The notes beneath the pieces were generated by a model. It made no database searches. It worked only from the letters and a program-made list of their open reading frames with translations, and was not told the origin of the DNA. Shown piece by piece: positions 3,464-61,856 of a DNA stretch of 64,000 bases. This stretch comes from Rhodospirillaceae bacterium (GTDB lineage: Bacteria; Pseudomonadota; Alphaproteobacteria; UBA828). Within the stretch, counting starts at the first letter, position 1; the number at the start of each line of letters is the position of its first letter. The stretch spans positions 76,563 to 140,562 of the forward strand of contig PBDG01000009.1 of assembly GCA_002717225.1 (NCBI GenBank), read 5' to 3'. A program made the position numbers and the translations under genes.

Positions 3464-3530
3464 CCGCCATCGACCTTAATCGAATTGAGCGCCATAATGA
3501 GTGTTCAAATATATTGAGGAGAGCGCGGCT

Positions 3531-4361: not shown

Positions 4362-4376
4362 GTTGAGCGACCGACT

Positions 4377-7599: not shown

Positions 7600-7646
7600 A
7601 ACAGCAAAATTTGAGAATTCAAACAGAATCGAACGAGGCCCAACCC

Positions 7647-11116: not shown

Positions 11117-11134
11117 ACAGTAGGAGAAAGAGAT

Positions 11135-12934: not shown

Positions 12935-12953
12935 AGAGCCGAAAGTACAGGCG

Positions 12954-28930: not shown

Positions 28931-28949
28931 GGTCCTCTTCTCCTTCTCT

Positions 28950-31004: not shown

Positions 31005-31274
31005 TTAAGTCGCCCCTCCCGAAAAACATCGTGAACACTGTAAAATTGATGGTATTTGCAATAGCTTCTCCCCACACTTCAACTCTTCAAAAGGTCTCTA
31101 GGTTAGCAAATTTTGCGGTAACTTAGTATCCGACACAGAGCATGTCCACGACAACACTCATTAATAATTTAATGTTTTTCCACGCTCGACAAGTGCGGTT
31201 ACATACGGCAAGAATTTACGGCTGGCCGACTGCGGCCACAAATTATTTTGATGTCAGAGCGAAAGAGGTGCCGC

Positions 31275-33386: not shown

Positions 33387-33396
33387 GGATACAATT

Positions 33397-44250: not shown

Positions 44251-44252
44251 AG

Positions 44253-46068: not shown

Positions 46069-46934
46069 CAGAGCGACCTGCGGAAAATTTTTCCAGTAAT
46101 GCCCTGCGGCAAGATGCGCAGCAACAATACCGCGACGATGAGGAGCGCGACACCGCCGATAATCGGTGTAGTCTCATAGGTAACGAGCTGGCGCACCGTA
46201 CCGAACACACCGGAAGCAACGATAGTACCAGTAATAGCTCCAGTGCCGGCAGTGATCACCGTGATAAATGCCTGGGCAACATAAGTGAAGCCAACGGTCG
46301 GGATAATCTGCGAGATCGGCGCCAAAAGACCACCGGCCAAACCAGTAAGCGCAGCGCCAATGCCAAAAGTCACCATGTAGACCTTGGGCGGGCTGATTCC
46401 GAGAGCCGCCGCCTGATCGGCATTCTGCATAGTGCCACGTGCAATCAGCCCGAGCTTGGTACGGGTGAAGGCGAGATAAATTCCCGCGAAAAGAATTACA
46501 GTCAGGCCGATCAGCACCAGCCGGTATACAGAAAGCTGATATTGGCCGATGCTAAAATTGCCCATCGGCGCCGAAACACCGGTGATGTAATTGCCAAAAA
46601 TGGAGGTAACTATACCGATCAAGAGAAGGCTCAAACCCCAGGTGGCAATCAGCGTGTCAACCAAGCGGCCGTAAAAGAAGCGGATCAAAAAGCGTTCCGC
46701 AAGAATGCCGATAACGCCAACAACAAGAGGCGACAGGATCAGCATAGAGACCCATATATTCACGCCAGCATTTGTGGCAACCACCGTGGTATAGCCACCA
46801 AGCATCATGAATTCGCCATGCGCGAAATTGATTACGCGCATCATGCCGAAAATGATCGCCAGCCCAGCGCATGTAAGCGCCAGGCTGGAAATCCCGTTCA
46901 GCACTTCGATTATGAGAAGTGCGGCCGTATCCAC
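46068..46934 (-). CDS. HAAT-family ABC transporter permease, LivH-like
   Basis: 288-aa polytopic membrane protein with the N-terminal motif LNGISSLALTCAGLAIIFG.... Confidence 0.8.
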   Translation of the reverse strand: MDTAALLIIEVLNGISSLALTCAGLAIIFGMMRVINFAHGEFMMLGGYTTVVATNAGVNIWVSMLILSPLVVGVIGILAERFLIRFFYGRLVDTLIATWGLSLLLIGIVTSIFGNYITGVSAPMGNFSIGQYQLSVYRLVLIGLTVILFAGIYLAFTRTKLGLIARGTMQNADQAAALGISPPKVYMVTFGIGAALTGLAGGLLAPISQIIPTVGFTYVAQAFITVITAGTGAITGTIVASGVFGTVRQLVTYETTPIIGGVALLIVAVLLLRILPQGITGKIFRRSL

Positions 46935-46980
46935 GGCTGAACCTTTAGGGCTTCCTGTTTGAGGTTATGCTGTTCCGCTT

Positions 46981-48219
46981 TTATAGAATGGGCTCAAGAT
47001 GCGCATCCATATCGGGCGTCTTGGTCAGATCACAGCGATCAACCACGTCGCTAGGATAAAGCTGACTGTAACTGTCAAAAATCTTCCAGCTTTGATTCTG
47101 GCACTCAGCTACATGCATATCCTGGATGACATGATTTGTTACCGGGTCAACGACCATGTGGCCCGCTGGGCCATCCCAAGCGATATCGCCGCTGCGAAGC
47201 GCATCCATCACTGCTTGACGCTCGTGCGTACCTGCCTTCTTGACACCCTCAGCCCACAGCATGGTTCCAAGATAGCCGCCGATACCAACCGCGTTGAGGT
47301 ACGGCGCATCGGAGCCAAAACGCTTATGATAGCGCGCTACGAAATCCTTATTGGCTGGCAGGTCGATTTCCTGAAAGTAAGGCTGAGCGCTGACGATGCC
47401 GTTACTCTCTTCTGGCTGAAGCTGCATATGTTCATTGCCAACGCCGAATGTGCAAGAAACGATCGGAATTTTGTTGAGCATTCCGGCCGCTGCCCACTGG
47501 CGGTAGAAACCCATGTGTGCTGCGCCCACAAGGCAGGTTGCGAGCCAATCAGGCTTGGCCTCCTGAATCTTGGCAATCGCCGGACCGAATTCGGTAACAT
47601 CGAGCGGGAAGTGATCACGCTGCAGTACTTCGCCGCCAAGGTCTCCAGAGAATTTCTGCAGCCATTTGCCAATGATTTGCGGCGCGTTATAGTCAGCCCC
47701 GATGTAATAGGCCTTCTTACCGCGATTATTGAAACCGAACTCCGCCGTAGGCTTCACCCACTGCACGGCGCCCACGCCCGAAACGAAATTGTTGATATCG
47801 CAAACGCCGCCTTCATAAATGACACTGTACCAGAGGAGGGTTTTGTAGCGCCGGAGTATTGGGCGAATGACTTCGCGCGACGCACTGGTGATAGCACCGT
47901 GTACAAGATCAACCCGCTCTTTGAGAGCCGCTTCCTGAGCATATTGTGCGTAAAGCTCCATGCTCGACTGCGGGTCATATTTGATCAATCTAATTTTCTT
48001 GCCATTTAGGCCGCCGGCAGCGTTGATTTCCTCAACCGCAAGCTCGCAGGTCATAGTCATCGGTGTACCGTAAATATCGAGACCACCTGATTGGTCAAAC
48101 AGCGAGGCAATTACGATCTCGTCATCCGCCTTACTCTTATAAGGCAAGATGCTGGCGGCAAAAGCGGTGCCAAGACCAGCACCCGCGCCCTTTAAAACAG
48201 TTCTGCGTGAAAGTTTCAT
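46981..48219 (-). CDS. HAAT-family periplasmic substrate-binding protein (LivK / amide-urea-binding-like) with a Tat-type signal
   Basis: N-terminal MKLSRRTVLKGAGAGLGTAFAA is a twin-arginine-like signal. The size and fold match type-I PBPs of the Leu/Ile/Val/urea/amide family. Confidence 0.8.
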   Translation of the reverse strand: MKLSRRTVLKGAGAGLGTAFAASILPYKSKADDEIVIASLFDQSGGLDIYGTPMTMTCELAVEEINAAGGLNGKKIRLIKYDPQSSMELYAQYAQEAALKERVDLVHGAITSASREVIRPILRRYKTLLWYSVIYEGGVCDINNFVSGVGAVQWVKPTAEFGFNNRGKKAYYIGADYNAPQIIGKWLQKFSGDLGGEVLQRDHFPLDVTEFGPAIAKIQEAKPDWLATCLVGAAHMGFYRQWAAAGMLNKIPIVSCTFGVGNEHMQLQPEESNGIVSAQPYFQEIDLPANKDFVARYHKRFGSDAPYLNAVGIGGYLGTMLWAEGVKKAGTHERQAVMDALRSGDIAWDGPAGHMVVDPVTNHVIQDMHVAECQNQSWKIFDSYSQLYPSDVVDRCDLTKTPDMDAHLEPIL

Positions 48220-48493: not shown

Positions 48494-49507
48494 ATGGAAT
48501 ATCTTTTCGGCGACCCACCGGACCCAGGCGCGGTAAAAGAGATTGCCCCTGGCCTCCAGTGGCTGCGCATGCCACTCCCAATGGCACTCGATCATATTAA
48601 TCTCTGGCTAATCGAGGATGGTTCGGGCTGGACCTTAATTGACACCGGCCTATACAGCGGTTTGTCTCAAAAACTTTGGCGCAATGTGCTCAACAATCTC
48701 CTCGGCGGGCGGCCTCTGACACGGGTAATCTGCACCCATTTTCACCCCGATCACGTTGGGATGGCGGGCTGGCTTGTGGAAGAGACCGGCGCAGAATTTT
48801 GGATGGCGCGTGAGGAATGGCTTTACGCCAGAGTTCTGGCAATAGATACGGGCGAACACTTTACCGATGCCATGGTGGCGCATTACCACCGCGCCGGAGG
48901 TAGCCCGGAATATCTTGCCAAGCTTCGTGAACGAGGAGCATTTTTCTCGGGCATCGTCTCGGAAGTGCCCCGCAGCATTCAGCGTATTCGCGACGGCGAC
49001 GCATTCAAGATCGGTGGGAAGCAGTGGCACGTAGTAGTTGGCAACGGCCACGCCCCGGAGCACACTTGTCTGCTTTCGAGAGAACTCGGTTTATTTATTT
49101 CGGGCGATATAGTCTTGCCACGCATTTCACCACACATTGGCGTCTATGCGGACGAGCCCGACGGCAATCCACTGAGGGACTATTTAGAGACTCTGGAAAA
49201 ATTTCACGCGTTGCCGGACGATGCTATCGTCTTGCCATCGCATAACGAGCCTTTCCGCGGCCTGCACAAGCGTCTCAGCGAACTGCAACAGCATCATGCC
49301 GAGCGGCTCAAAGAATTTTCTCACGCCTGCGTCACGCCAGCGACCGCCCTCGACGTTGCGAAACAGGTGTTCGCACGGCGCCTAGATTCGGCGCAACTCG
49401 GCTTCGCCATCGCTGAGACAGTCGCGCACCTCAATTACCTGATTGCTGACGAGCAGATCAAACGCCGAACCAATGAAGATGGCGTCTATCTCTACCAAAA
49501 AATCTAA
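48494..49507 (+). CDS. MBL-fold metallo-hydrolase
   Basis: ICTHFHPDHVGMAGW (HxHxDH) and downstream His/Asp ligands. Start re-assigned to ATG 48494, which has a GAGGAG SD. The track ORF began inside an AT-rich promoter region. Confidence 0.75.
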   Translation: MEYLFGDPPDPGAVKEIAPGLQWLRMPLPMALDHINLWLIEDGSGWTLIDTGLYSGLSQKLWRNVLNNLLGGRPLTRVICTHFHPDHVGMAGWLVEETGAEFWMAREEWLYARVLAIDTGEHFTDAMVAHYHRAGGSPEYLAKLRERGAFFSGIVSEVPRSIQRIRDGDAFKIGGKQWHVVVGNGHAPEHTCLLSRELGLFISGDIVLPRISPHIGVYADEPDGNPLRDYLETLEKFHALPDDAIVLPSHNEPFRGLHKRLSELQQHHAERLKEFSHACVTPATALDVAKQVFARRLDSAQLGFAIAETVAHLNYLIADEQIKRRTNEDGVYLYQKI

Positions 49508-50661
49508 AAACCCAGATAACGATCGACCATATCTCGCAGAATTAGTGCGGCATCAACCATTTGATCAAGCGGAACATACTCGTTGGCGGCATGACTTGTA
49601 GCGCCGTCACCTGGGCCGAAATTACAGATCTCGATCTCATCATCGGCGAAATAACGCCCCTCGCTAACCGCCAGCGCATTAACAAAATTCGGAGCTAAAC
49701 CACGGCGGGCTTCAATAGCGGCGGCAAGCGCTGCGATACCAGGACCATCTTTTTTTGGCGAGAAACCGTTGGTGCCAGTCAGAAATTCTGTTGAAAAACT
49801 TTCGGGCGGCTCATTCACATCAGCAAGAATTTCCACTACCTCATCGTAGGCGGCGCAGACATCCTCTTCAGGTAACAGGCGACGGTCGATCTCAAGCCAG
49901 CACGAACTTGGCACGACATTAACATTATGCCCGCCCTGAATCCGCCCGATGTTCATCGTCGAACGCTTCTCGCCATTGACGCGTTTTTCGAGACGCGGCT
50001 CAAGCACCCGGCGCAAATGATCAACCAGGCGCATCATACGAAGAATTGCGTTATCTCCAGCTTGCGGATCACCGCCATGAGCGGCACGTCCTGTCACAGT
50101 TATACGCAGCCAGAGAACGCCGCGCTCCTCGGTGATGAGCTCGTTTTGCGTCGGCCCGCCGACCAGCAAGAAATCCGGCCTGAGCGCATCCGATTCGCGC
50201 AAAAAGCGCATGCCATTTGGACCAAGCCTCTCCTCGTCGCCAGTGAATGTGAAGACAACCTCACCCTTCTTGGGGCCGCCTCGACGCATTATCTCCTCGC
50301 CGAGCCAGATATGAAGTGCCGTAGATCCTTTGCAATTATTGGCACCGAGGCCGTAGATCGCGCCATTGCGCTTAACAGCTTCAAAGGGATCGCTCAGCCA
50401 ATCACCGAGATCACCAACTTCTACCGTATCGATATGACAGTTGAATCCAAACTGTGGCGACCCTGTGCCAACGCGGGCCACGAGATTGTCAATGCTAGGG
50501 GCGCAGCTCTTGGTTTCGCAGATGTAACCAGCGGACTCAAAGCGAGCGCGAATATAAGCGCACATTTTCCTTGTGTCACCCGGTGGATAGGTTGAAGGTA
50601 TGCCGATAAGGTCGCCCAAGATATCGGTCAGTTCGTGTGTGAGTTTGGCTTCGCTCGTCAT
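49504..50661 (-). CDS. M20-family metallopeptidase / deacylase (ArgE/DapE-like)
   Basis: 385 aa with M20 catalytic and dimerisation blocks (...HIDTVEVGD..., ...GANNCKGS..., ...EEIMRRGG...). Confidence 0.8.
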   Translation of the reverse strand: MTSEAKLTHELTDILGDLIGIPSTYPPGDTRKMCAYIRARFESAGYICETKSCAPSIDNLVARVGTGSPQFGFNCHIDTVEVGDLGDWLSDPFEAVKRNGAIYGLGANNCKGSTALHIWLGEEIMRRGGPKKGEVVFTFTGDEERLGPNGMRFLRESDALRPDFLLVGGPTQNELITEERGVLWLRITVTGRAAHGGDPQAGDNAILRMMRLVDHLRRVLEPRLEKRVNGEKRSTMNIGRIQGGHNVNVVPSSCWLEIDRRLLPEEDVCAAYDEVVEILADVNEPPESFSTEFLTGTNGFSPKKDGPGIAALAAAIEARRGLAPNFVNALAVSEGRYFADDEIEICNFGPGDGATSHAANEYVPLDQMVDAALILRDMVDRYLGF

Positions 50662-50938
50662 AGGTCGGGGAGAGTGGTTTCGACTGGTTCAGGCGGGAGC
50701 ATAGACACGATAAACGAAGAGATGCAGAAAATTTTGACTGATTAGCCACGAATTGAACTACCGATCTATCTCCACCAAGCAAAGTAAGGCCAACTAATTC
50801 CCGTATTTATCTCTGTCGCAGTTTGCTTGGGAAAATGCACAATCTTTAGCAAAGACACAAAGTTTTAGCGGTTTTCTGGGACAAATCCACAATTCATTTA
50901 AGGAAACTTTATTCCTTAAATTCAATTGCACGGAACGT

Positions 50939-50966
50939 GGCGAGGGGCTAGTCTCGCGCCCTCGCC
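50939..50966 (+). promoter_or_regulatory. Stem-loop GGCGAGGG-N12-CCCTCGCC in the 5' leader, 23 nt upstream of the amidotransferase start codon
   Basis: Read directly: ggcgaggg gctagtctcgcg ccctcgcc is an 8-bp perfect stem. It is followed by the GAAGGGG SD and the ATG at 50989, and lies inside a 330-bp AT-rich leader. Confidence 0.3.
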
Positions 50967-50988
50967 AAATCGGCGAAGGGGAATATCT

Positions 50989-51909
50989 ATGTGCGGAATC
51001 GCAGGCATCATGTTCAAAAATGGTCGAACTGACCATGAAACGGGCGTGGCGCTAATCGATATGCTCGATGGCTGCCAACACAGGGGTCCGGATTCCACGG
51101 GCTTTGCGCTCTATGGCGAAGAACACACGAGCGAGCTCAAGTTACGCTTTCTTATTGGAGACGGCACCGCGGCCGATGACTCCGTCGAACTGATCAAGAG
51201 TGCGCTGGAGGATCATGATGCGGAAATCGTCGACGATATGCGCATCGGCAACAATTATCAGGCGCTGGTGCGCTTTAACGGCGATCTACGCAGCTTTGCC
51301 TATGCGATGGAACACGCGGCGCCCGATGCTAAAGTCATCTCCATCGGACAGAGCCTAGATATCGTCAAAGATGTGGGCGGCGCCCATGATGTAGATGACC
51401 GCTTCGACGTACATAACTTTAAAGGCAGCCATGGCCTCGGCCATGTGCGCCTCGCCACCGAATCGGATGTCCGCCCGGAATCAGCGCACCCTTTCTGGGC
51501 TACTGGTTTTTCCGACGTCGCCATCGTCCATAACGGCCAGATCACCAATTATTGGAAGATGCGCCGCCGGCTTGAGCAACGCGGATTTGAATTCCGCACC
51601 GACAATGATAGTGAATTAGTTGCTGTCTATCTTGCCGACAAAATGTCCCAGGGAGTGCCTCTGCGCGAAGCCCTAAAAGCTTCGATTGAAGATTTGGACG
51701 GCACTTTTTCCTTCCTCGTCTCGACCAAGGACGAAATCGGCTATGCCAAGGATAATCTCGCCGCGAAACCGATGGTCATGTACGAAACCGACGACCTCAT
51801 CGCCATCGCTTCGGAAGAAGTGTCCCTTAATCGCCTGTTTCCGGGCCACGCACTGAACACCAAGGAGCCCCCGCCGGGGAGCTATGATACATGGTCCAAA
51901 TCGACCTAG
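50989..51909 (+). CDS. Class-II (Ntn) glutamine amidotransferase, GlxB/MgsA-like subunit of a split glutamate-synthase-like enzyme
   Basis: The mature N-terminus after Met is CGIAGI, the class-II GATase nucleophile Cys. The size is about 306 aa. Start set at ATG 50989. Confidence 0.8.
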   Translation: MCGIAGIMFKNGRTDHETGVALIDMLDGCQHRGPDSTGFALYGEEHTSELKLRFLIGDGTAADDSVELIKSALEDHDAEIVDDMRIGNNYQALVRFNGDLRSFAYAMEHAAPDAKVISIGQSLDIVKDVGGAHDVDDRFDVHNFKGSHGLGHVRLATESDVRPESAHPFWATGFSDVAIVHNGQITNYWKMRRRLEQRGFEFRTDNDSELVAVYLADKMSQGVPLREALKASIEDLDGTFSFLVSTKDEIGYAKDNLAAKPMVMYETDDLIAIASEEVSLNRLFPGHALNTKEPPPGSYDTWSKST

Positions 51910-53843
51910 CGGAAATTCCAGTCCGCCAGGCCAACGAACTTATCCGCAAATATGGGGCCGACGGCGAGGATATTGATATAATTAACCCCGACGCGCGACA
52001 TCACGTCGGCGTAGGGTTGACCGACCCAGTGACTGTGCGCGTGCACGGGTCCGCAGGTTATTTCTGCGCTGGCTTGACCGATGCGGCCCACTTCGAGATT
52101 GAAAGCAACGTCGGCTGGGGCCTTGGCGACAATATGTATACAGGCTCTGTTATCGTTGGCGGAAATGCCAGCGCAATCGCCGGCGTGGCGATACGCGGCG
52201 CCGAAATTGTCATCAAAGGCAATATGGGATCGCGCGCCGGACAAGTAATGAAAGCGGGCACACTCTTGTGCTGTGGCAATGCAAATTTTATGGCCGGCTA
52301 TCTCATGTATGGCGGGCGCATCATCATCCTGGGCGATTCCGGCGAACGCGTCGGTGAAGATATGGCCGCCGGTGAGATTTATGTCGGTGGAAAGGTTCAG
52401 TCGCTTGGCTCCGATGCCAAAATGGGCGATACGGAAAGCAGCAAAATTGACGAGCTACGCGCCTTTCTCGACCGTTACAAGATTACCTTTAATGGCGATT
52501 TCCAGAAAATTGTCAACGAAGGCAAAAAGCTGCATTACAAAACCTCAGAACGGCCGATGCGCAGCCTTCCCTTTGTCGGATTCTCGGGAAAATCGGATTA
52601 CTGGAACCCGAAAATTCAGGAAGATATTCATATAAAATCACAGATTGGCCGCTATCGCGTACGTGGTTATGGCGGTGCGCGGGAACTGCCACACCTGGCA
52701 GATATCGGATTCGCGCGGAATATCTCCGGGTTAAATGAGATTTCCAACCCGGTGTCCAAGGTCGAGATGCGCACGCTGATCGGCGGCAAACACGGGGCGC
52801 AACCGCTCGACCTTTCAATGCCGGTGATGATCGCGCCAATGAGCTATGGCGCGTTGAGCCGTTCCACCAAACAAGCCATCGGTATCGCCTCATCGCTCGC
52901 AGGAATCGCGGAAAATACCGGTGAAGGTGGTATGAGCGACGCCCAGCGTGGTGCCGCGGAGCAATTGGTTTTCCAAATGCTTGGTGGACGGCTTGGTTGG
53001 AACATCCATGATATGAAACGCGCCAATGGGTTGGAGATCTATATTAGCCAGGGCGCCAAGCCCGGCTTCGGCGGTCAGCTCATGGCGAAAAAGGTGACCA
53101 AGGAACTAGCCGAAATTCGAGGTATCCCCCAAGGCATCGATCTGCGCTCACCATCGCGGCATCCGGATATTCTGGGCGGCGACGATCTCCTCATCAAGGT
53201 CGAGGAAATGCGCGAAGCAACAGGATATCGTTTGCCGGTCAGCGTCAAGCTAGGCGCCGGACGGGTGCGCGACGACATCAAGATCGCTTACAAGGATGGC
53301 TTCGATTTTGTCGAGCTCGACGGCATGCAGGGCTCAACCGGTGCCGGTGGCGCAGAAGTCATGGAATATGTTGGCATTCCCACTATCTCAGCGATCATGG
53401 ACGCGCTTGATGGTCTGGCGGAGATCGACGCCGACGGCAAAATTCAAATCATTCTCATGGGTGGTCTGCGCGACGGCGTGGACGCAGTCAAATCGCTTTG
53501 TCTCGGCGCCGATGCGGTGGCCTTTGGCAACGCCACGATCATCGCCGGCGGTTGCATTTCCTGCATGCAGTGCCATGTTGGTCAGTGTGTGACCGGCATC
53601 GCAACCCAGGACCCCGAGCATGAGAAGCGCTACCGCCCGGAAATCGAAGCGCATAATATCCACCGCTTTCTCGAAGGAGTGCGCTGGCAGATCGCAGCGC
53701 TGACCCACGCACTCGGCTATGGAGATGTCAAATCTCTCAACCGGGACGACCTCGTCGCCCTGACCCCAGAGGCGGCGGAGATCACGCGCCTTCCCTACCG
53801 GCCAGAGCTTCGCGAACAACAGCATCTCAGCAAGGCAGTCTAA
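51891..53843 (+). CDS. Fusion protein: GXGXG-repeat domain (N-terminal, GlxC/GltB C-terminal-domain-like) + glutamate-synthase FMN/Fe-S central domain (GlxD/GltB domain-2-like)
   Basis: N-terminal 230 aa has G-rich beta-helix repeats (VIVGGNASAIAG..., VIKGNMGSRAGQV..., LCCGNANFMAGY..., IILGDSGERVGED..., IYVGGKV). The C-terminal 420 aa has NTGEGG, QGAKPGFGGQL, DGMQGSTGAGG, and the 3Fe-4S motif C-x5-C-x4-C followed by VTGIATQDP. Confidence 0.8.
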   Translation: MVQIDLAEIPVRQANELIRKYGADGEDIDIINPDARHHVGVGLTDPVTVRVHGSAGYFCAGLTDAAHFEIESNVGWGLGDNMYTGSVIVGGNASAIAGVAIRGAEIVIKGNMGSRAGQVMKAGTLLCCGNANFMAGYLMYGGRIIILGDSGERVGEDMAAGEIYVGGKVQSLGSDAKMGDTESSKIDELRAFLDRYKITFNGDFQKIVNEGKKLHYKTSERPMRSLPFVGFSGKSDYWNPKIQEDIHIKSQIGRYRVRGYGGARELPHLADIGFARNISGLNEISNPVSKVEMRTLIGGKHGAQPLDLSMPVMIAPMSYGALSRSTKQAIGIASSLAGIAENTGEGGMSDAQRGAAEQLVFQMLGGRLGWNIHDMKRANGLEIYISQGAKPGFGGQLMAKKVTKELAEIRGIPQGIDLRSPSRHPDILGGDDLLIKVEEMREATGYRLPVSVKLGAGRVRDDIKIAYKDGFDFVELDGMQGSTGAGGAEVMEYVGIPTISAIMDALDGLAEIDADGKIQIILMGGLRDGVDAVKSLCLGADAVAFGNATIIAGGCISCMQCHVGQCVTGIATQDPEHEKRYRPEIEAHNIHRFLEGVRWQIAALTHALGYGDVKSLNRDDLVALTPEAAEITRLPYRPELREQQHLSKAV

Positions 53844-53844
53844 G

Positions 53845-56376
53845 TTGGCAGCGAGTAAAGACAGCGGAGTGGAAGCTCCCATGCTTCTTCCGGCTGAAAT
53901 GCCGGACGATACGGACGACCTGCATTTTGTCCCTGCACCCTGCCAGGTGGCCTGCCCTGTCGGAACCGACGCGCCTTCCTATATAGCCTATATATGGGAA
54001 GGCAAATATGAGGAAGCGTTCGAGGCGATTACCGCTACCAACCCATTCAGCTCGATTTGCGGACGGGTGTGCGATGCCCCATGCGAACCTGCCTGCAGAC
54101 GGGTACAATCAGATGGGCCCGTGCAAATCCGCAATCTCAAGCGTTACGTCATGGATGAAATTGGCGACCGGCTCGATCCGCCTCCCGTGCCAGTCACCCA
54201 GAAAGAGACGGTGGCCATCGTCGGGTCCGGACCGGCCGGCTTAGTCGCCGCGCATGATTTGTCGATCGCCGGCTATGAAGTCCACGTCTACGAGATGACC
54301 GACCGGCTAGGTGGAATGATGATATGGGGCATCCCCGCTTTCCGCTTGCCACCCGGCGTGATTGACGAAGACATTCAGCGCCTAACCAAGCGCTGTCCTG
54401 GCCTCAAGATTCACCTCAACACTGCGCTGGGCGATGGTGTGACACTGGAGGAACTAAAGGAGCGCCATGACGCCGTGGTGCTCGCCATTGGCTCCTGGTG
54501 GGGCAAAAAGATGGGAATTCCGGGAGACACCGACACGCGGGTCATCGACGGCGTGCAGTTCCTGCGTGACGTCAATGCTGGCGCACGGCCGGAAATGCCG
54601 GAAACCGTGGTCGTGGTCGGCGGCGGGGACGTCGCCATGGACGCCTGCCGAGTCGCCAAGAGACTTCCTGGCTGCAAGCACGTCAAAGTGATCTATCGTC
54701 GGGGGCCGGACGAGATTCCGGCGCGCGCCATTGAGCTTGAGGGGGCCGTCAAAGAGGATATCGAATTCATCTACAACACCCAACAAACCGCCGTTTCTCC
54801 AAAGGGCAACCAGCTCGCCATCACCTGCCTTAAAACCGAGTTGGGTGAACCAGACGAAGAAGGCCGGCGCGTTCCAGTCGAGATAGTGGGCAGCGAGCAC
54901 GAGATTGAATGCGGTATGATCATTGCCTCGATCGGCCAGCAGGGCAAATGTGCTCATCTCGACGAGAAAGGCATGATGCTGAGTGATCGCGTGCGGACAG
55001 AATGGGGCAGTATGTTGACCGACGACCCAAAAGTCTTCGCCGCCGGCGACGGCGCTTTCGGCGGATCAACTATCGTCATGGCCATGCATCACGGTCAACG
55101 CGTCGCTTATTACGTGAAGGCGTTTCTCGAAGGCCATAGGGACCCTATGCCCTACCGCCAACCCTTCCGCACCCGACGGGTGCCTCTGGCGCAGGATCTC
55201 GAGTGGGAGAAGCTGCCGTTACAAGAACCCGCCTTTCACGGGCTAGGCGCCAATCCGATCGAGTTCCCCGAGATCGAAGATACTTATGGCAGCGACACGG
55301 CACGCAATGAGGCAGCGCGCTGCTATCGCTGCGACGCAGAGACTGGTACTGCTGACTATTCCGTGCGCCACCGCGAGGACATTTTCACCATGGCGCGCAC
55401 CAACCCACTCGACGAGCGTTCGCATGCCACAATGCTTGCGCGCCGCTTGCAGCCGCGCGATAACCCTTTTCCAGACCACCGAAAGGCCACGCTGGACGAT
55501 CTCATCTTTCTGCCAGCCAATCTGACCCGACTGGTGATTGACCCCTACCGCGAGGCATGCCGAATTGACACGGAACTCGGCGCCGGACGCTTCGTTATGG
55601 AGCAACCCTTTATCGCTACCGGATTCGACGACGCACCAGGTCAAGTACGTGAAGCCATTGCCGAGGGCCTAAAGGATTTTGACACTCCCTATCTCGGAGT
55701 ACGCGCTCTTTCAACGGATGTTCCCTGGCTGCAACTGGTCGTGCCGGGGCAGATCGCACCGAGCACTGACGCGGCGGCGCAGATTCATAACCTAGGTCAC
55801 GAATTTCGACCGATTGAGACGACGCGTCTGACAGAAAACCAACTTCTTGGCTTGTCGGTTTCCTCTCCCGACATACTGGAAGAAACGATCTCTTATGCCC
55901 TGGCGAAGAAATTTGATATACTCCTCCTCGACGGCAGCGGCGGCCTCGGCACGCCCTGGGCCGAGCTCTCCGGTGAACCCAATCTAACCATCCTGCGCGA
56001 CGCCGTCGCTATTCTCAGACGTATTGGGCGAGAGGAAGAGATCGACCTGATTTTTTTCGGTGGTGTTCGCTCGGGCACTGATACGGCTAAGCTGGTAGCG
56101 CTCGGTAGCATGGCGGTGGTGCTTGGCGTTACCCTGGGACTGGCCGCTGGAGCTGAAATTAGAGACCGGCACGACATGCAATTCTCCGCCGATCGTGACA
56201 AAAATGATCGCGCCGAAGCGGTGGCCCATATTCTTAATGCTAGCGCCCAAGAAGCGTCGATGATGGCGCGGTGCACCGGCAAGACCAATCTGCAAAACGT
56301 CGAGCCGGAGGATTTGCGCGCAATTACCATCGCCACCGCCAAAGCCACCGGTATCCCGCTCGCCGGCACGCTTTGA
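53845..56376 (+). CDS. Fusion protein: GltD-like NAD(P)H:flavin/Fe-S oxidoreductase (N-terminal, about 470 aa) + degenerate second glutamate-synthase-like TIM-barrel domain (C-terminal, about 370 aa)
   Basis: N-terminal Cys-rich block ...CQVACPVGTDAP...ICGRVCDAPCEPACRR..., then IVGSGPAGLVAAHDL (FAD) and VVGGGDVAMDACRVA (NADPH). The C-terminal half has LDDLIFLPANLTR, ILLLDGSGGLGTPW and IFFGGVRSGTDTAKLVALGSMAVVLG, but lacks the NTGEGG and QGAKPG motifs. Confidence 0.8.
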   Translation: MAASKDSGVEAPMLLPAEMPDDTDDLHFVPAPCQVACPVGTDAPSYIAYIWEGKYEEAFEAITATNPFSSICGRVCDAPCEPACRRVQSDGPVQIRNLKRYVMDEIGDRLDPPPVPVTQKETVAIVGSGPAGLVAAHDLSIAGYEVHVYEMTDRLGGMMIWGIPAFRLPPGVIDEDIQRLTKRCPGLKIHLNTALGDGVTLEELKERHDAVVLAIGSWWGKKMGIPGDTDTRVIDGVQFLRDVNAGARPEMPETVVVVGGGDVAMDACRVAKRLPGCKHVKVIYRRGPDEIPARAIELEGAVKEDIEFIYNTQQTAVSPKGNQLAITCLKTELGEPDEEGRRVPVEIVGSEHEIECGMIIASIGQQGKCAHLDEKGMMLSDRVRTEWGSMLTDDPKVFAAGDGAFGGSTIVMAMHHGQRVAYYVKAFLEGHRDPMPYRQPFRTRRVPLAQDLEWEKLPLQEPAFHGLGANPIEFPEIEDTYGSDTARNEAARCYRCDAETGTADYSVRHREDIFTMARTNPLDERSHATMLARRLQPRDNPFPDHRKATLDDLIFLPANLTRLVIDPYREACRIDTELGAGRFVMEQPFIATGFDDAPGQVREAIAEGLKDFDTPYLGVRALSTDVPWLQLVVPGQIAPSTDAAAQIHNLGHEFRPIETTRLTENQLLGLSVSSPDILEETISYALAKKFDILLLDGSGGLGTPWAELSGEPNLTILRDAVAILRRIGREEEIDLIFFGGVRSGTDTAKLVALGSMAVVLGVTLGLAAGAEIRDRHDMQFSADRDKNDRAEAVAHILNASAQEASMMARCTGKTNLQNVEPEDLRAITIATAKATGIPLAGTL

Positions 56377-56380
56377 CTTC

Positions 56381-56416
56381 AACGGGCCATGAGAACAACC
56401 CGTTATATGCTGTTTT
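56381..56416 (+). terminator. Candidate intrinsic terminator (AACGGG-N12-CCCGTT hairpin followed by a T-rich tract)
   Basis: Read directly: aacgggccatgagaacaacccgtt atatgctgttttg lies 5 nt after the stop of the 843-aa gene. The stem is only 6 bp and the U-tract is interrupted. Confidence 0.3.
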
Positions 56417-56565
56417 GAGCGCCAGGTACCCGCTTCTCCGCAATTGGCCTATTCCGTAACAACTCGACAGCACCGTCGGGCTTGCCGGAATGTCTTCCGT
56501 CTTTCGGTTAATGGAAGCTCTGCTGCGATTTCCTTGCGGCAAATAAACAACTAAACTCCAGCAGC

Positions 56566-57852
56566 ATGGATATATCGCTCAATTACGGTAAAACCCAACT
56601 TGTCGTAACGCTACCGGATGACCTTGAAGTCCGTGTCATCCGCAAGCCTGACATGCCGCTCCTGGATGATCCGGTGGCAACACTCGAAGCCTCGTTTGCC
56701 AAGCCAGACGGCGGCCCAAATCTCGCCTATCTTGCCAGAAAAGCACAAACAGCCTGTATTCTCATTTGCGACATCACACGCCCAGTGCCAAACAGTGTAT
56801 TGCTGCCACCGCTCCTCCGTGCGCTTCTCGCTGCCGGGCTAGGCAGGGAAAACATCGTTATTCTCGTCGCCACCGGTCTGCACCGGCCAAATGAAGACGA
56901 GGAGCTGGCCGAGTTGGTCGGTGATCCCTGGGTGATGGAGAATTTTGCCGTCGTCAATCATTTTGCCCGCGACGATGCCTCACATGTTTCACTCGGACGC
57001 ACAAGGAGTGGAACAAAAGTCATGCTAGATAAACGCTTCGTAGAAGCGGACCTCCGCATCGCCACTGGTCTAGTAGAGCCCCATTTCATGGCTGGCTGGT
57101 CCGGTGGGCGCAAGGTGATCGCGCCGGGAGTCGCCCATGCCGAGACCATTACCACCTTCCACAGCGCAAGGTTTATGGAGCATCCTAATTGCGCCAATTG
57201 CGTGCTCGACGGCAATCCGCTGCATGACGAACAACTTGAAATTATCGCCATGTTAGGCTGCGTCAGTGCGATCAATGTAGTGATCAATGAGGATCGTCGT
57301 ATTTCAATGATTAATTTCGGTGAGGTAGTAAAAAGCCATATGGCAGCGGTAGATCATGTCCGCACCTATGCCGAAGTCCCAATGCCGGAGCGCTTCTCCA
57401 CCGTGATTACCAGCGCCGCGGGCTACCCCCTCGACAAGACCTACTATCAAACAGTGAAAGGCATGGTCGGTCCGCTAGATATCCTGAAGCCTGGTGGAAC
57501 TCTCGTCATTGCCTCGGCCTGTTCCGAAGGCATGGGCTCGGCGGAATATATCACCTCCCAACGTAATCTGATGAATATGGGCGCTGATCGCTTCCTCAAA
57601 CATATCGAGTCTAAAAGTCACGCAGCGGTCGATGAATGGCAGACCGAGATGCTTTTGAAACCGCTTCGCTCGGGCCAAGTGGTTCTCTACACTGAAGGCC
57701 TAACGGAAGAGGAACTCTCCCTTACCGCCGTGAAACCCACCACCTCAATTGACCAAGCAATAGTTGCAGCAGTCGCTGACGCTAACGACAAGCGCATAGC
57801 GGTTATTCCGGAAGGGCCCTATGTGGTTCCACGATACCGGCCCGGGATTTGA
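56566..57852 (+). CDS. LarA-family (nickel-pincer-nucleotide-dependent lactate racemase-like, DUF2088) protein
   Basis: The N-terminal domain matches LarA blocks: ...ILICDITRPVPNSVLLPPLL..., ...VILVATGLHRP..., ...VNHFARDD..., ...ATGLVEPHFMAGWSGGRKVIAPGVA.... The last block carries the cofactor-tethering Lys and the catalytic His region. Length 428 aa. Confidence 0.75.
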   Translation: MDISLNYGKTQLVVTLPDDLEVRVIRKPDMPLLDDPVATLEASFAKPDGGPNLAYLARKAQTACILICDITRPVPNSVLLPPLLRALLAAGLGRENIVILVATGLHRPNEDEELAELVGDPWVMENFAVVNHFARDDASHVSLGRTRSGTKVMLDKRFVEADLRIATGLVEPHFMAGWSGGRKVIAPGVAHAETITTFHSARFMEHPNCANCVLDGNPLHDEQLEIIAMLGCVSAINVVINEDRRISMINFGEVVKSHMAAVDHVRTYAEVPMPERFSTVITSAAGYPLDKTYYQTVKGMVGPLDILKPGGTLVIASACSEGMGSAEYITSQRNLMNMGADRFLKHIESKSHAAVDEWQTEMLLKPLRSGQVVLYTEGLTEEELSLTAVKPTTSIDQAIVAAVADANDKRIAVIPEGPYVVPRYRPGI

Positions 57853-59402
57853 CAACGCCCGACCCCTCTGGCGGAGGACCGCTGCCGCCTAACCGTTTCA
57901 CTAATATTTGCGTTCTAGTAGCGACGGTGTGTGGCTCAAGTCTTGCAATTATTGATGCCACCGCCATTAACGTCGCCCTTCCAGCCATTCAAGACGGACT
58001 CAATGCAGATATCACCTCACTGCAATGGGTGATCGAGTCCTATGCGCTGTTCCTCGGCGCCTTAATTCTGGTCGGTGGTGTGTTGGGTGACCATTTCGGA
58101 CGAAAGCGGATGTTTGCCATCGGTGTCATCATCTTTGCCTCCGCTTCCGCCTGGTGTGGCCTAGCTGAGGGCGTGATGCAATTGATCGTCGCTCGCGGCT
58201 TTCAAGGCATTGGTGCGGCGCTCGTAGTGCCCGGCAGTCTAGCGCTGTTGAGCGCCCATTTCCCACAAGAGCAACGGGGCCCGGCAATTGGACAATGGGC
58301 TTCGTTCACAACACTCGCTATCGTTCTCGGGCCGTTATTGGGCGGGGTACTTGTAGACACGGCGTCGTGGCGTTGGGTTTTTTTTATTAACCTGCCCATT
58401 GCTGCTATTCTGCTTTTCGTGCTTTATCTCGGCGTACCGGAAAGCCGAAATGAGAGCCAGGCAGGCAAACTCGACATTGTAGGCGCCGCATTCATCACCC
58501 TCGGCTTGGGCGGCTTGGTGTTCGGCCTGCTCGAATCCGCGCACTTGGGCTTTAGCGCGCTTGAGGTATGGGGCTCTATAACGGCGGGCATAGTGATCAT
58601 ACTTGCCTTCATTTACCGACAAATGACTGTGAAATTCCCTATGCTGCCGCTCGACCTGTTTCGCTCCCGCGCCTTTTCCGGCGCTAATATTATGACATTC
58701 CTGCTCTATGGCGCGATGACAGGCTGTCTATTTTTCCTTCCCTTCAACCTAATGCAGGTACACGGATGGAGCGCGACGGAAGCCGGTGCCGCGCTGCTAC
58801 CACTTATCTTGCTTATCTCCCTCTTCTCTCTTGCCGCCAGTAAACTGGTGGCTAAGCTCGGTCAACGCATACCGCTCACCAGTGGTGCATGCATCGCCGC
58901 ACTGGGATTTGCACTCCTCGCCTTGCCTAGCAACGACAGCGGCTATTGGTCTGGCTTCCTGCCAGGCATAGCCGTACTTGGGCTAGGTCTTGGAATCGCC
59001 GTGGCGCCCCTCACCATCGTCGTTATGGGGGCAGTGCCGACCGATCGCTCCGGCCTCGCTTCAGGTGTCAACAATGCAGCTTCGCGCGTCGCCATGTTGA
59101 TGGCAGTGGCAATTTTCGGGGTAGTAATGTTTGAGATCTTTTCAAGTCAGTTACAGAGTGCGCTTCAGGTCATGCCGCTTGACAACGCCAGCCGGATACA
59201 AATCTCGGAACGCATGGTGCACCTATCGGGCCTGCAGCCACCGGATGGTCTTAAAGCCAACGTGGCGGAACAACTGCATGTCGCGGTCGGCGAGTCCTTC
59301 GTCGCCGGCTTTCGGGCTGTCTCTCTAATCGCTGCAGGTGCAGCGCTTGCCGGTGGCCTAATTGCCGGATTAACGATTCCGCCGCGCGCGGATGTGAAGT
59401 AG
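57849..59402 (+). CDS. MFS transporter, 14-TM DHA2 (EmrB/QacA-like) family
   Basis: 517 aa with 14 predicted hydrophobic segments and the GDHFGRKRM motif-A-like loop. It overlaps the LarA-like stop by ATGA. Confidence 0.8.
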   Translation: MTTPDPSGGGPLPPNRFTNICVLVATVCGSSLAIIDATAINVALPAIQDGLNADITSLQWVIESYALFLGALILVGGVLGDHFGRKRMFAIGVIIFASASAWCGLAEGVMQLIVARGFQGIGAALVVPGSLALLSAHFPQEQRGPAIGQWASFTTLAIVLGPLLGGVLVDTASWRWVFFINLPIAAILLFVLYLGVPESRNESQAGKLDIVGAAFITLGLGGLVFGLLESAHLGFSALEVWGSITAGIVIILAFIYRQMTVKFPMLPLDLFRSRAFSGANIMTFLLYGAMTGCLFFLPFNLMQVHGWSATEAGAALLPLILLISLFSLAASKLVAKLGQRIPLTSGACIAALGFALLALPSNDSGYWSGFLPGIAVLGLGLGIAVAPLTIVVMGAVPTDRSGLASGVNNAASRVAMLMAVAIFGVVMFEIFSSQLQSALQVMPLDNASRIQISERMVHLSGLQPPDGLKANVAEQLHVAVGESFVAGFRAVSLIAAGAALAGGLIAGLTIPPRADVK

Positions 59403-59411
59403 TCTCATGAT

Positions 59412-60962
59412 ATGCGCACGCCCTTGATGGATTTGGACAGAGCCCACTTCGACGTCGTAGTGATCGGCGCCGGGGTCAATGGCGCAAGCACGACACAGCA
59501 TCTTGCCGCCGCCGGCTTCACTACACTTCTCGTAGAGCAGAATGATTTCGCCTCCGGCTCCTCGAGCCGCTCCAGCCGCCTATTGCATTGCGGCCTCCGT
59601 TATCTTGCACCGGGCTGCTCCATGTGGGAGTTCGCCTTTCATCCGAACCGCCTGATAACGGCGCTCTCCATGGCGCGCCAAGCGATGGAGTCACGCAGCC
59701 AAATGGTGCGCGAAACACCCGAGCGCGTACGATCGATGACCTTCTCCTATCCAATCTATAAGGAATCACCTTATGCGCCGTGGCAGATTGATCTCGCCTT
59801 CAACATATTGAAAGCACTCGGGCCGAAGGACGTACCACTCGACTATCGCCGCCTCAACCGCTCGGAGGCACACACCCGGCCACTTCTGCAATGGCTAAGG
59901 GATATGGATGCCCTCAAGGGTATCGCCCAGTTCCGCGAATATCGTTTCGAATGGCCTGAGCGAATTGCTCTCGATACGGTGCTCGATGCCGCCCGGCTAG
60001 GTGCGCAAGTCCGTAACCATACGGCTTTACGAGGGGTTGAGCGTGAGGCCGATGGTAATTGGCGGCTTACCTTGGCAGATAAGCTGGCGACGGAAGAAGT
60101 GACCGTAACGGCAACAGCGTTGGTCAACACTGCCGGTATCTGGATCGATAGGGTCAATCGCATGGCCGATAGCAATGTGGGACGGCGTATCACCGGCACA
60201 AAGGGCATCCATTGTATGTTCCGCCTGCCGGCGAACTGCGCTGATCAAGGAATCGCCAGCATGAACCGTGACGACGAACCGTTTTACTGCGTCCCCTGGC
60301 GCGGACTCCACTATGTCGGGCCAACGGAAACCCTCTACGACGGCAATATCGACGATATTCACCCAGAAGAAGAAGAAATTGAATGGCTCCTGGATGAGGC
60401 CAACCACCTATTACCAGGAGCTGAATTCAAGCGAGAAAAAATGCTGTTCGCCTGGGCCGGCGTACGGCCGCTCACTTACGATCCAGCGCAACCCAAAGGC
60501 GCCAGGAGCCGTGAATTGCACGATCTGTCGGGCGAAGGCTTCGATAATCTTTTTGCATTGACTGCCGGGCCGATCATGACCCATCGCTCGGCTGGCGAAC
60601 TTCTGACCAAGCATGTCGCGAAGCGGGTACGCCCCTCTGGCACGCCGGGTAGGCTAAGCTTCAGCGCAAAAACCTATCCCGACAACACTAATTCGCTGGC
60701 CATCGACGATGCATGGCCGGAAACGACCTTCGCTGATCTCAACCACGCGGTGGCCCATGAGCTACCCGCCAATCTAATCGATCTTCTGTTCCGCCGCACC
60801 GGCAATGGCTGGACCGCCTCAATGGGCGCACCCATGGCCGAGCAGGCAGCACGCCAGGTAGCGGAGCAAATGGGCTGGGACGAAGCGCGAATCCAGGCCG
60901 AAACTCAAGCCTATAAGGATTACGTCGCACGCAATCACCTATGGCACGGCGCGAATGATTGA
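59412..60962 (+). CDS. FAD-dependent oxidoreductase of the glycerol-3-phosphate dehydrogenase (GlpD/GlpA) family
   Basis: DVVVIGAGVNGASTTQHLAAAGF (FAD Rossmann fold) and SSRSSRLLHCGLRYL, a near-exact GlpD-family signature. Length 516 aa. Confidence 0.8.
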   Translation: MRTPLMDLDRAHFDVVVIGAGVNGASTTQHLAAAGFTTLLVEQNDFASGSSSRSSRLLHCGLRYLAPGCSMWEFAFHPNRLITALSMARQAMESRSQMVRETPERVRSMTFSYPIYKESPYAPWQIDLAFNILKALGPKDVPLDYRRLNRSEAHTRPLLQWLRDMDALKGIAQFREYRFEWPERIALDTVLDAARLGAQVRNHTALRGVEREADGNWRLTLADKLATEEVTVTATALVNTAGIWIDRVNRMADSNVGRRITGTKGIHCMFRLPANCADQGIASMNRDDEPFYCVPWRGLHYVGPTETLYDGNIDDIHPEEEEIEWLLDEANHLLPGAEFKREKMLFAWAGVRPLTYDPAQPKGARSRELHDLSGEGFDNLFALTAGPIMTHRSAGELLTKHVAKRVRPSGTPGRLSFSAKTYPDNTNSLAIDDAWPETTFADLNHAVAHELPANLIDLLFRRTGNGWTASMGAPMAEQAARQVAEQMGWDEARIQAETQAYKDYVARNHLWHGAND

Positions 60963-61856
60963 TTAGACCGGCGCAAACTCGCTGTCGCCATCGAGTTCAC
61001 CGTCACAGGTCGCGCGGCCAGTCTCGACCATATGAATTAGATGGGCTAATACCGAGCGCGCAGCAGCGGCGTGCAGCACCGGGTCAACATCGGCGTAGAT
61101 CAACCGCACCATCTCTGGGATGCGGCTGATGCCATCATCCAGACATTTGCCGATCTGCACCTCGCGGGCCTCGCGGTGATTAATCAGTGCGGCAATAAAT
61201 GTCCCCGGTGATTCGATTGCTGGCCCATGGGTCGGCCATAAGCGAATCTCTGCGCGCCCAGCGAGGCGCCGGCAAGAGGCTAAGTAATCCGCCATACTAC
61301 CATCTGGCGGCGAGACCACCGTGGTCGACCAGCCCATCACATGATCTCCGGAAAACAAAACCTGCTCCTCTTCGAGCGCGAAACACAGATGATTCGAGGT
61401 GTGCCCCGGAGTATGAATCGCCTCGAGGGTCCAACCGGAGCCTGAAATCACATCACCATCTCCAACAAAAATATCTGGCGCGAAGTCGCGATCAGCCCCC
61501 TCCTCGACTTCTTCACCTGTTCGCCCCCCACCATGAGGTCCGAAGCCGTAACTTTTTGCGCCGGTAATTTCCTGCATATAACGCACCGCTGGCGAATGAT
61601 CGCGATGGGTGTGGGTCACCAATAAGTGACTAACCGTCTCGCCCTTAATTGCACCCAAGAGCGCCTCGACATGCGGTGTCAAATCTGGTCCAGCATCGAC
61701 AACCGCCACCTCGCCACGACCAACGATATAAGTGCCGGTGCCATAAAAAGTAAAAGGCCCCGGATTATTGGCAACGACACGGCGGATCAGCGGGGATAGC
61801 GTGTCGCAAACACCATAAGTGAAATCGAGCTCACGCTTAAACGGGATGCCAGCCAT
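60963..61856 (-). CDS. MBL-fold metallo-hydrolase (hydroxyacylglutathione-hydrolase-like)
   Basis: LLVTHTHRDHSPA (HxHxDH) motif. Length 297 aa. Confidence 0.75.
   Translation of the reverse strand: MAGIPFKRELDFTYGVCDTLSPLIRRVVANNPGPFTFYGTGTYIVGRGEVAVVDAGPDLTPHVEALLGAIKGETVSHLLVTHTHRDHSPAVRYMQEITGAKSYGFGPHGGGRTGEEVEEGADRDFAPDIFVGDGDVISGSGWTLEAIHTPGHTSNHLCFALEEEQVLFSGDHVMGWSTTVVSPPDGSMADYLASCRRLAGRAEIRLWPTHGPAIESPGTFIAALINHREAREVQIGKCLDDGISRIPEMVRLIYADVDPVLHAAAARSVLAHLIHMVETGRATCDGELDGDSEFAPV

Follow-up and report, generated by a model that had tools for sequence, protein, structure and literature searches.

A 64,000-nucleotide stretch of contig PBDG01000009.1 (hereafter the window), from a marine metagenome-assembled Rhodospirillaceae bacterium, carries six consecutive open reading frames on the plus strand (positions 50989 to 60962, G1 to G6) that we read as a composite locus. 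In this reading, which we hold to be slightly better than evenly probable, G1 to G3 constitute an enzyme resembling glutamate synthase (GOGAT) and N-methylglutamate synthase (NMGS), to which a LarA-family racemase was added in one clade, and a transporter of the major facilitator superfamily (MFS) and a GlpD-like dehydrogenase in the sub-clade of the window. The six contiguous same-strand genes had been described in an earlier note made from the sequence, and they are present with the domains it named, as confirmed by Pfam and NCBIfam; what it called "amidotransferase / synthase / reductase" can be specified as a split and rearranged homologue of glutamate synthase / N-methylglutamate synthase. 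The comparison of gene order across genomes that the note had proposed found the order conserved in relatives, and this conserved synteny shows that the clustering is beyond chance. The idea of the six genes as a single evolutionary unit did not hold, as the locus is layered: G1-G3 is autonomous, LarA is attached in one clade, and the MFS and GlpD-like genes are attached in the closest sub-clade only. The genes are as follows.

G1, 50989 to 51909, plus strand: GlxB-type class-II (N-terminal nucleophile, Ntn) glutamine/gamma-glutamyl-amide amidotransferase, 306 aa; GATase_6/7.
G2, 51891 to 53843, plus strand: GXGXG beta-helix (PF01493) fused to an FMN Glu_synthase domain (PF01645) with a Cys4 iron-sulfur motif, 650 aa.
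G3, 53845 to 56376, plus strand: Fer4_20 and Pyr_redox_2; GltD/NfnB-like NAD(P)H-FAD-2x[4Fe-4S] reductase fused to a divergent Glu_synthase/MgsC-like FMN-type TIM barrel; the start is TTG at 53845 (843 aa) or ATG at 53881 (831 aa).
Spacer between G3 and G4, 56377 to 56565, no strand: 189 nt, with a weak hairpin at 56486-56499.
G4, 56566 to 57852, plus strand: LarA-family nickel-pincer-nucleotide-dependent 2-hydroxyacid racemase, 428 aa; Lar_N and LarA_C.
G5, 57849 to 59402, plus strand: DHA2 (EmrB/QacA-type, 14 transmembrane segments) MFS transporter, 517 aa; MFS_1.
G6, 59412 to 60962, plus strand: GlpD-like FAD-dependent dehydrogenase, DAO and DAO_C, 516 aa.

By aligning 27 homologues of G3 and using the alignment to fetch loci from one genome per GTDB species, we obtained 483 stretches that encode a G3 relative; the 80 best of these were retained together with flanking sequence of 10 kb, and the proteins of the window were compared with these loci (L numbers below) by tblastn. 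G1, which begins MCGIAG behind a ribosome-binding site (GAAGGGGA), retains Cys2, Asn182-Gly183 and Asp207 in 73 of 73 orthologue matches, identifying a Cys-1 Ntn amidotransferase with an Asn-Gly oxyanion hole and the Asp for binding the alpha-amino group, and is 36% identical to canonical MgsA (taken from L056). G2 shares 32% identity with MgsB over its GXGXG part and 38% with MgsC over its FMN part. Its GEGG and QGAKPGFGGQ motifs together with K390, Q396 and R410 align with GEGG, K972, Q978 and R992 of ferredoxin-dependent GOGAT in the comparison with solved glutamate synthases, and C555, C561 and C566 occupy exactly the positions of the [3Fe-4S] ligands of GltB (C-x5-C-x4-C), with C558 as an additional cysteine. 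The 2-oxoglutarate/catalytic residues and the iron-sulfur cysteines of G2 are invariant in more than 70 orthologues, whereas the canonical MgsC paralogues found in the same loci have GGGGML, carry A/Y/W/D at the cysteine positions and have Met where G2 has Q396.

In G3, the FAD and NAD(P)H Rossmann motifs and the N-terminal 2x[4Fe-4S] region are present in GltD-type arrangement, and the C-terminal ~300 residues (~320 beyond the Pfam domains) form a second, divergent Glu_synthase/MgsC-like domain that starts at LDDLIFLPANL, continues with DGSGGLGTP and GGVRSGTD and ends in EPEDL...AGT. This part is 32% identical to MgsC across its last 186 residues and was modelled as an FMN-type TIM barrel with a predicted local distance difference test score (pLDDT) of 85-93. 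Four further cysteines of G3 (C493, C496, C572 and C810) are invariant. The family of the extra domain is small: a set of 1.84 billion representatives contains 476 clusters of it at 50% identity, 62 of them at E <= 1e-30. The identification of this domain as an FMN_dh-type hydroxy-acid oxidase was unsupported, as the motifs are those of Glu_synthase (DGxGGxG, GGxRxGxD) and not the FMN_dh His/Arg. Direct evidence that G2 and G3 act as one enzyme comes from a natural G2-G3 fusion of 1486 aa in a representative protein library (P0245), which is 62% identical to G2 over residues 1-644 and 46% identical to G3 over residues 661-1477. From these observations we infer that G1-G3 form a single iron-sulfur flavoenzyme with several cofactors, belonging to the glutamate synthase / N-methylglutamate synthase (GlxBCD) superfamily.

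The G1-G3 module travels as a unit through many lineages. G1, G2 and G3 are collinear and co-directional in all 67 of the 67 loci that have enough upstream sequence, spanning Alpha- and Gammaproteobacteria, Latescibacterota, Planctomycetota, Opitutales and others, and G2 identity lies between 70 and 98% throughout the scored loci. The 80 best-matching loci all come from metagenome-assembled genomes (MAGs), mostly of marine Alpha- and Gammaproteobacteria with a few Latescibacterota, Planctomycetota and Opitutales, and no full-length G3 homologue was found in the plasmid collection. With ~480 genome loci and many different neighbours, G1-G3 is an autonomous module that in most lineages has other partners or none; in one gammaproteobacterial MAG (jk18x7bins.3), two separate G2-G3 copies lie on different contigs (L053 and L080).

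Among these other partners are genes of the N-methylglutamate-pathway type. A GS-III/GmaS-type ligase (TIGR03105, 675 bits versus a cut-off of 470) is encoded in 13 of the 80 loci, directly after G3 in 11 of the 13, mostly in Gammaproteobacteria/Acidiferrobacterales with some Alphaproteobacteria and Rhodospirillales. Several of these loci continue from the ligase into FolD, a monomeric FAD oxidase and SoxB/D/A/G-like genes, and several have an Amt-like transporter and GntR or XRE-cupin regulator genes on the upstream side, a gene content known from the N-methylglutamate pathway (PMC3160333, PMC6237917). In these lineages G1-G3 occupies the place of mgsABC within N-methylglutamate-pathway clusters: linkage to gmaS/mgd is seen in L015, L017, L034 and L037, and no canonical mgsABC is visible in L015, L017 and L037. 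Canonical mgsABC stands alongside G1-G3 in 4 loci, so the two are not simple equivalents. Neither a GmaS-like ligase nor Mgd genes were found in the 64-kb window or in any locus of the LarA clade. A third paralogous GlxD-like synthase, ~35% identical to G2 with the motif QGCKVGLGGHLM and all four cysteines retained, was observed at L056:~1200-4400 and L063:~1150-2500, where it adjoins both G1-G3 and canonical mgsABC and makes three related systems per neighbourhood.

LarA stands directly after G3 in 17 genomes only, which form one clade with few losses in a neighbour-joining tree of G3, and G1-G4 are collinear in these 17. All six genes occur in L003, L004 and L005, and also, with two inserted genes, in L085, a metagenomic contig whose LarA and GlpD-like proteins are 68-70% identical to those of the window; the LarA-MFS-GlpD-like arrangement is limited to the closest sub-clade (window, L003, L004 and L005) and L085. 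In the sister sub-clade (L088:12980-17200; L010, L012, L014, L018, L024 and L030), LarA is followed instead by YgjP-like, aldehyde:ferredoxin-oxidoreductase-family (AOR; tungsten/molybdenum pterin) and ThiS-like genes, with GlnE and AhpC convergent downstream, and in L029/L089 only LarA and MFS are found. LarA was kept just after G3 on the same strand while G3 diverged to 68% and LarA to 57% identity and the downstream genes were exchanged.

G4 has as its best match in the PDB the LarA of Isosphaera pallida (LarAIp; 9eia, E = 6e-108), an enzyme with racemase activity on small aliphatic 2-hydroxy acids, among them lactate, 2-hydroxybutyrate and glycerate (PMC11851776). The residues described for LarAIp as cofactor tether (Lys183) and nickel ligand (His199), for catalysis (His106/His173) and for binding of the carboxylate and hydroxyl groups (Arg72, Tyr294, Gln295 and Lys298) are all present in G4, and D69 likewise matches; the side-chain pocket reads F174/M175/W358/Q359 versus L174/M175/W356/Q357 in LarAIp. 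Of the 17 LarA genes linked to the cluster, 16 have the resulting 13-residue active-site signature unchanged, and the remaining one (L007) has Leu at 174. We compared G4 with the NCBIfam equivalogs for LarA and LarAH5/6/10/14-16, and since it scores under every cut-off (361.6 versus 460, 307.7 versus 500, 283 versus 462 and 242.7 versus 540), it is a member of the LarA family without an assigned equivalog. That this subfamily is a genuine nickel-pincer enzyme follows from L092:7179-14891, where a LarA that shares 64% identity and the 13-residue signature with G4 sits in a canonical larA-larC-(262-aa LarE-like)-larB operon. This lar operon is flanked by an FAD oxidoreductase, an MFS transporter and a D-2-hydroxyacid dehydrogenase, and the locus also has a 1205-aa fused ABC transporter resembling the one at 37469-41086 of the window. 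Two other roles for LarA were considered and set aside. A role as a 2-hydroxyglutarate racemase supplying 2-oxoglutarate to G2, a low-probability idea, is at odds with the pocket, which is hydrophobic and LarAIp-like and not of the NQT type found in the Hgr group of hydroxyglutarate racemases (PMC7583248). Action of LarA and G6 on sulfolactate or 2,3-dihydroxypropane-1-sulfonate, a possibility raised by an Ldh_2 gene in L085, finds neither basic residues in the pocket nor further sulfonate genes.

G5 scores 251.2 bits against TIGR00711 (DHA2/EmrB; cut-off 230.2) over residues 21-501, and the transport direction that we infer from this family match is that of an efflux-type protein; a shorter call of the gene (491 aa) would cut off part of the first transmembrane segment. 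Because the protein passes the cut-off of the DHA2/EmrB efflux family, the dedicated uptake that the earlier note had proposed for the transporter is unlikely. G6 is GlpD-like in architecture only: its best PDB matches are GlpD and GlpO, it reaches 148.4 bits against the GlpD equivalog (cut-off 360), and no glp genes occur in the window. Linkage of G6 to LarA-MFS is restricted to orthologues of at least 68% identity. Hydantoinase/oxoprolinase families flank GlpD-like homologues in L085, L087 and L091, and the window itself holds two hydantoinase/oxoprolinase A+B pairs (26915-31004, minus strand, and 31248-35688, plus strand), the second B subunit being fused to an acetone-carboxylase-gamma-like domain.

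The six genes are flanked by the following features.

UrtA/amide-binding-type ABC transporter, 43546 to 48219, minus strand: binding protein (46981-48219), two permeases and two ATPases; Peripla_BP_5/6, BPD_transp_2 x2, ABC_tran x2.
M20 deacylase of the ArgE/DapE family, 49504 to 50661, minus strand: TIGR01910 at 223 bits versus a cut-off of 217.6; divergent from G1.
Leader, 50662 to 50988, no strand: AT-rich intergenic region of 327 nt from which the M20 deacylase gene and G1 diverge.
MBL-fold hydrolase gene, 60963 to 61856, minus strand: convergent; 3' boundary of the block.

The divergent upstream unit, comprising the M20 deacylase (often with an alpha/beta-hydrolase) and the five-gene ABC transporter, is shared by the whole LarA clade, and the M20 deacylase is found upstream of G1 in this clade only. 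The ABC binding protein is 77-98% identical in 12 related loci and scores 284 bits against the urea-ABC model (cut-off 494). The UrtA-like ABC transporter with the M20 deacylase is the likelier uptake system of the region. In L003, the closest relative, whose G3 is 95% identical, a further gene, amidase-signature-like and coding for 499 aa (5105-6604), lies between the M20 gene and G1; it is not in the window and has a homologue in L038. At the other end, the earlier note had placed the end of the block at a convergent gene, and this is the MBL-fold gene, whose stop codon abuts that of G6 and which is kept there in L003 and L005.

Most of the junctions within the block are as tight as had been noted, with a 4-nt TTGA overlap between G4 and G5 (kept in L003-L005), a 9-nt gap between G5 and G6 and a 1-nt gap between G2 and G3 (37 nt from the ATG start); the overlap between G1 and G2 was corrected from 4 to 19 nt and is the same in relatives. 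The 190-bp gap with a weak hairpin ahead of G4 measures 189 nt, and the ~330-bp AT-rich leader measures 327 nt with a GC content of 0.45 versus 0.548 in the whole window; their hairpins exist and are statistically unremarkable (leader fold z = -2.4, spacer fold z = -1.3), so that neither structure exceeds chance. The leader stem-loop (50940-50967) shows no supporting covariation in relatives and a search of Rfam gave no match at E <= 1 apart from one chance match to a long non-coding RNA, which together ruled out a riboswitch or leader RNA. Promoters and terminators were likewise dropped as operon evidence: terminator-like sites numbered 11 versus 11.5 expected, and counts at or under shuffle expectation provide no evidence for or against an operon. 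The ~110 nt ahead of G1 (50880-50988) are kept in the alignment of L003, L004 and L005, with conserved blocks and an inverted repeat (GGAAACT; TTTAAGGAAACTTTATTCCTTAAA) that may be an operator, a candidate drawn from the sequence; no regulator gene lies close to it. The distance from G3 to LarA varies across the 17 genomes: eight have 41-72 nt, the window and L003 have 189 nt, and the others have 328-801 nt that include small inserted open reading frames. The 189-nt version could possibly hold an internal promoter or a partial terminator. A compositional or mobile island was ruled out by the GC content of the block (0.567 versus 0.548 in the window), uniform GC at third codon positions and the lack of tRNAs.

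Using the electron path and mechanism of GOGAT (PMC8097209) as a template, we propose that G1 would hydrolyse a gamma-glutamyl amide, for which glutamine is the likeliest candidate in this organism, and channel the ammonia (or amine) onward to the FMN site of G2, where it would be added to 2-oxoglutarate and the imine reduced by FMNH2. Glutamine is favoured as the donor here because the clade has no GmaS-type ligase or Mgd genes and G2 keeps the GOGAT-type Gln396. Electrons would pass from NAD(P)H to FAD and the 2x[4Fe-4S] of G3, and then to the Cys4 cluster and FMN of G2, with the second FMN-type barrel and the four invariant cysteines of G3 serving as an additional redox or structural element. 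In the marine alphaproteobacterial clade the module would have gained a LarA racemase for small 2-hydroxy acids (of the lactate, glycerate or 2-hydroxybutyrate class), and in the sub-clade of the window a DHA2 MFS transporter and a GlpD-like FAD dehydrogenase. Most plausibly, G4-G6 would convert D- and L-2-hydroxy acids into each other, one of the two enantiomers being oxidised to the 2-oxo acid; a metabolic coupling of this layer with the G1-G3 layer may exist. Together with the UrtA-like ABC transporter and the M20 deacylase, the whole looks like a nitrogen-scavenging and assimilation region rather than one linear six-step pathway.

Several results weigh against this composite reading. G1, G2 and G3 all score far under the NCBIfam GOGAT equivalog cut-offs (G2 147.9 bits versus 1047 for GltB NF008730; G3 238 versus 483 and 196 versus 448 for the GltD models TIGR01317/1318), and the assignment of glutamine and 2-oxoglutarate to G1-G3 is a prediction from conserved residues. 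The AlphaFold2 model of G3 is moderate overall (pLDDT 69), and the second barrel is without the QGAKPGxGG loop, which makes FMN binding putative. No larB, larC or larE was found in the 64-kb window or in 90 other loci by tblastn with the LarC, LarE-like and LarB proteins of L092 as queries. Homologues of G6 at ~60% identity stand in unrelated contexts (beside peptide-type ABC transporters, GntR regulators, and MmgE/PrpD or hydantoinase genes) and never beside LarA, and spacers of 189 nt and of 328-801 nt would allow G4-G6 to be transcribed independently.

This last point leads to the alternative that the adjacency is coincidental, G1-G3 (a nitrogen-assimilation enzyme) and G4-G6 (a racemase for lactate/hydroxy acids, a dehydrogenase and an efflux pump) being unrelated tandem transcription units that were inherited together in one clade, which we regard as unlikely without being far-fetched. 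It would account for the long spacer in the window and for the still longer ones with inserted small open reading frames in 8 of 17 relatives, for the occurrence of G1-G3 alone or with other partners in most lineages, for the same LarA subfamily in an ordinary lar operon without G1-G3, and for the many contexts of G6 homologues. It does not readily explain, however, why LarA stayed just after G3 down to 68% (G3) and 57% (LarA) identity while the genes downstream changed, and the 41-72-nt spacers in eight genomes suggest co-transcription. Those short spacers in 8 of the 17 genomes, with the co-inheritance of LarA and G1-G3 across the whole clade, would equally suit a single pathway in which the MFS transporter imports a 2-hydroxy acid, LarA racemises it, the GlpD-like enzyme oxidises it and G1-G3 reductively aminate the 2-oxo acid with glutamine-derived ammonia to an amino acid, a concrete form of the dedicated pathway suggested in the earlier note. 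The six genes are co-directional with tight junctions, L003-L005 have them in the same order, as essentially does L085, and a route from hydroxy acid through oxo acid to amino acid makes coherent chemistry. We nevertheless consider this pathway improbable: the acceptor residues of G2 are those of a 2-oxoglutarate-type GOGAT and are identical in lineages without LarA or the GlpD-like gene, and the LarA pocket is hydrophobic and lactate/2-hydroxybutyrate-like, unlike that of the NQT hydroxyglutarate racemases (PMC7583248), so the product of G4 and G6 is unlikely to be the substrate of G2. Moreover, the MFS protein is an efflux-type DHA2 member, and AOR stands in place of MFS and the GlpD-like gene in the sister genomes.

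In a different direction, G1-G3 could be a synthase of the N-alkylglutamate (N-methylglutamate-type) kind that has an NAD(P)H reductase built in, the locus then serving amine catabolism and not ammonia assimilation, with the amine freed by the upstream amide transporter and hydrolases and gamma-glutamylated elsewhere. The nearest proteins to G1 and G2 are of the GlxB/GlxC/GlxD type (36-38% identity to canonical MgsA/MgsC), G1-G3 is directly followed in at least 8-13 loci by GmaS-type GS-III, FolD and SoxBDAG-like (Mgd) genes with no mgsABC visible in L015, L017 and L037, an amidase-like gene adjoins G1 in L003, and the reductant of NMGS is stated to be unknown (PMC6237917). Set against this are the lack of a GmaS-like ligase and Mgd genes from the 64-kb window and the LarA-clade loci, the GOGAT glutamine (Q396) in G2 where canonical MgsC has Met, and the 4 loci that carry both G1-G3 and canonical mgsABC, and we view this function as doubtful for the locus. 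Highly improbable, in our view, is a more radical scheme in which the second barrel and the extra Cys4 of G3 oxidise an L-2-hydroxy acid delivered by LarA and pass the electrons via the iron-sulfur chain to the synthase FMN, giving a redox-neutral "hydrogen-borrowing" amination; if true, such a complex would be a new enzyme class that couples hydroxy-acid oxidation directly to amino-acid synthesis in the LarA clade.

The interest of the locus lies above all in the enzyme family of G1-G3, stably paired as it is with a nickel-pincer racemase, and not in the row of six genes by itself. As the earlier note had remarked, no described pathway matches the six-gene block, and a literature search for the G1-G3 architecture found no description. 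In structure, G1-G3 stands between GOGAT and NMGS: its subunits are of the GlxBCD type, but it has the iron-sulfur wiring of GOGAT and a GltD-like reductase of its own. Such a built-in reductase is noteworthy because the redox partner of NMGS is stated to be unknown (PMC6237917), and the presence of G1-G3 in N-methylglutamate clusters of uncultured marine Gammaproteobacteria points to how the NMGS step can be driven. An unrecognised nitrogen-assimilation or amine-processing enzyme in such marine lineages would affect the annotation of marine nitrogen metabolism. For the stable attachment of a nickel-pincer LarA to G1-G3 in one clade, too, we found no description, and the supplementary context tables of the LarA papers make no mention of glutamate synthase, amidotransferase, GlpD or AOR; the pairing is a lead for LarA physiology outside lactic acid bacteria.

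Elsewhere in the window, a complete beta-oxidation style cluster (5887-14500), identical to a Tara Oceans scaffold, encodes an AMP-ligase, a thiolase, a 3-hydroxyacyl-CoA dehydrogenase/enoyl-CoA hydratase fusion, a long acyl-CoA dehydrogenase and two CoA-transferase subunits, and a 270-aa open reading frame between a short-chain dehydrogenase/reductase gene and an ABC ATPase (42528-43340, minus strand) had no Pfam match at E <= 1e-5.

Compared with known systems, G1-G3 shares with GltB/GltD (NADPH-GOGAT) the Cys-1 class-II amidotransferase, the GXGXG beta-helix, the GltD-type FAD/NAD(P)H subunit with N-terminal 2x[4Fe-4S], and the FMN synthase domain with GEGG, QGAKPGxGGQ, Arg and C-x5-C-x4-C, for which the cluster type is predicted. 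It differs in being encoded by three genes where GltB is a single alpha subunit (amidotransferase, central, FMN and GXGXG domains), in the position of GXGXG ahead of the FMN domain in G2, in having no Glu_syn_central match, in the fourth cysteine of the G2 cluster motif, in the GlxB-type G1 with its ~90-aa insert, and in the extra FMN-type barrel of G3 with its four invariant cysteines. MgsABC (= GlxBCD) provides the closest sequence relatives of G1 and G2 (36-38% identity) and the same subunit order of amidotransferase, GXGXG and FMN; however, canonical MgsC has GGGGML and no iron-sulfur cysteines whereas the G2 family has G[F/L]GGQL, MgsB and MgsC are separate proteins whereas G2 is fused, MgsABC has no reductase subunit whereas G3 is present here, and the window lacks the gmaS or mgd genes of the MgsABC context. 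In comparison with dihydropyrimidine dehydrogenase and the other GltD-like fusion proteins NfnB and AegA, the barrel of G3 is Glu_synthase/MgsC-like and not dihydroorotate dehydrogenase-like, there is no C-terminal ferredoxin domain, and G3 has separate amidotransferase and synthase partners. G6 resembles GlpD/GlpO in its DAO FAD domain and DAO_C, and departs from them in scoring far under the cut-off and in having no glp genes nearby. Finally, G4 matches LarAIp (= LarAH2/SAR, a broad-spectrum short-chain 2-hydroxyacid racemase) in all residues for nickel-pincer nucleotide binding and catalysis and in a near-identical pocket, while it has Phe for Leu174, as in the narrower L. plantarum enzyme, and adjoins a GOGAT-like enzyme instead of the lar cofactor genes.

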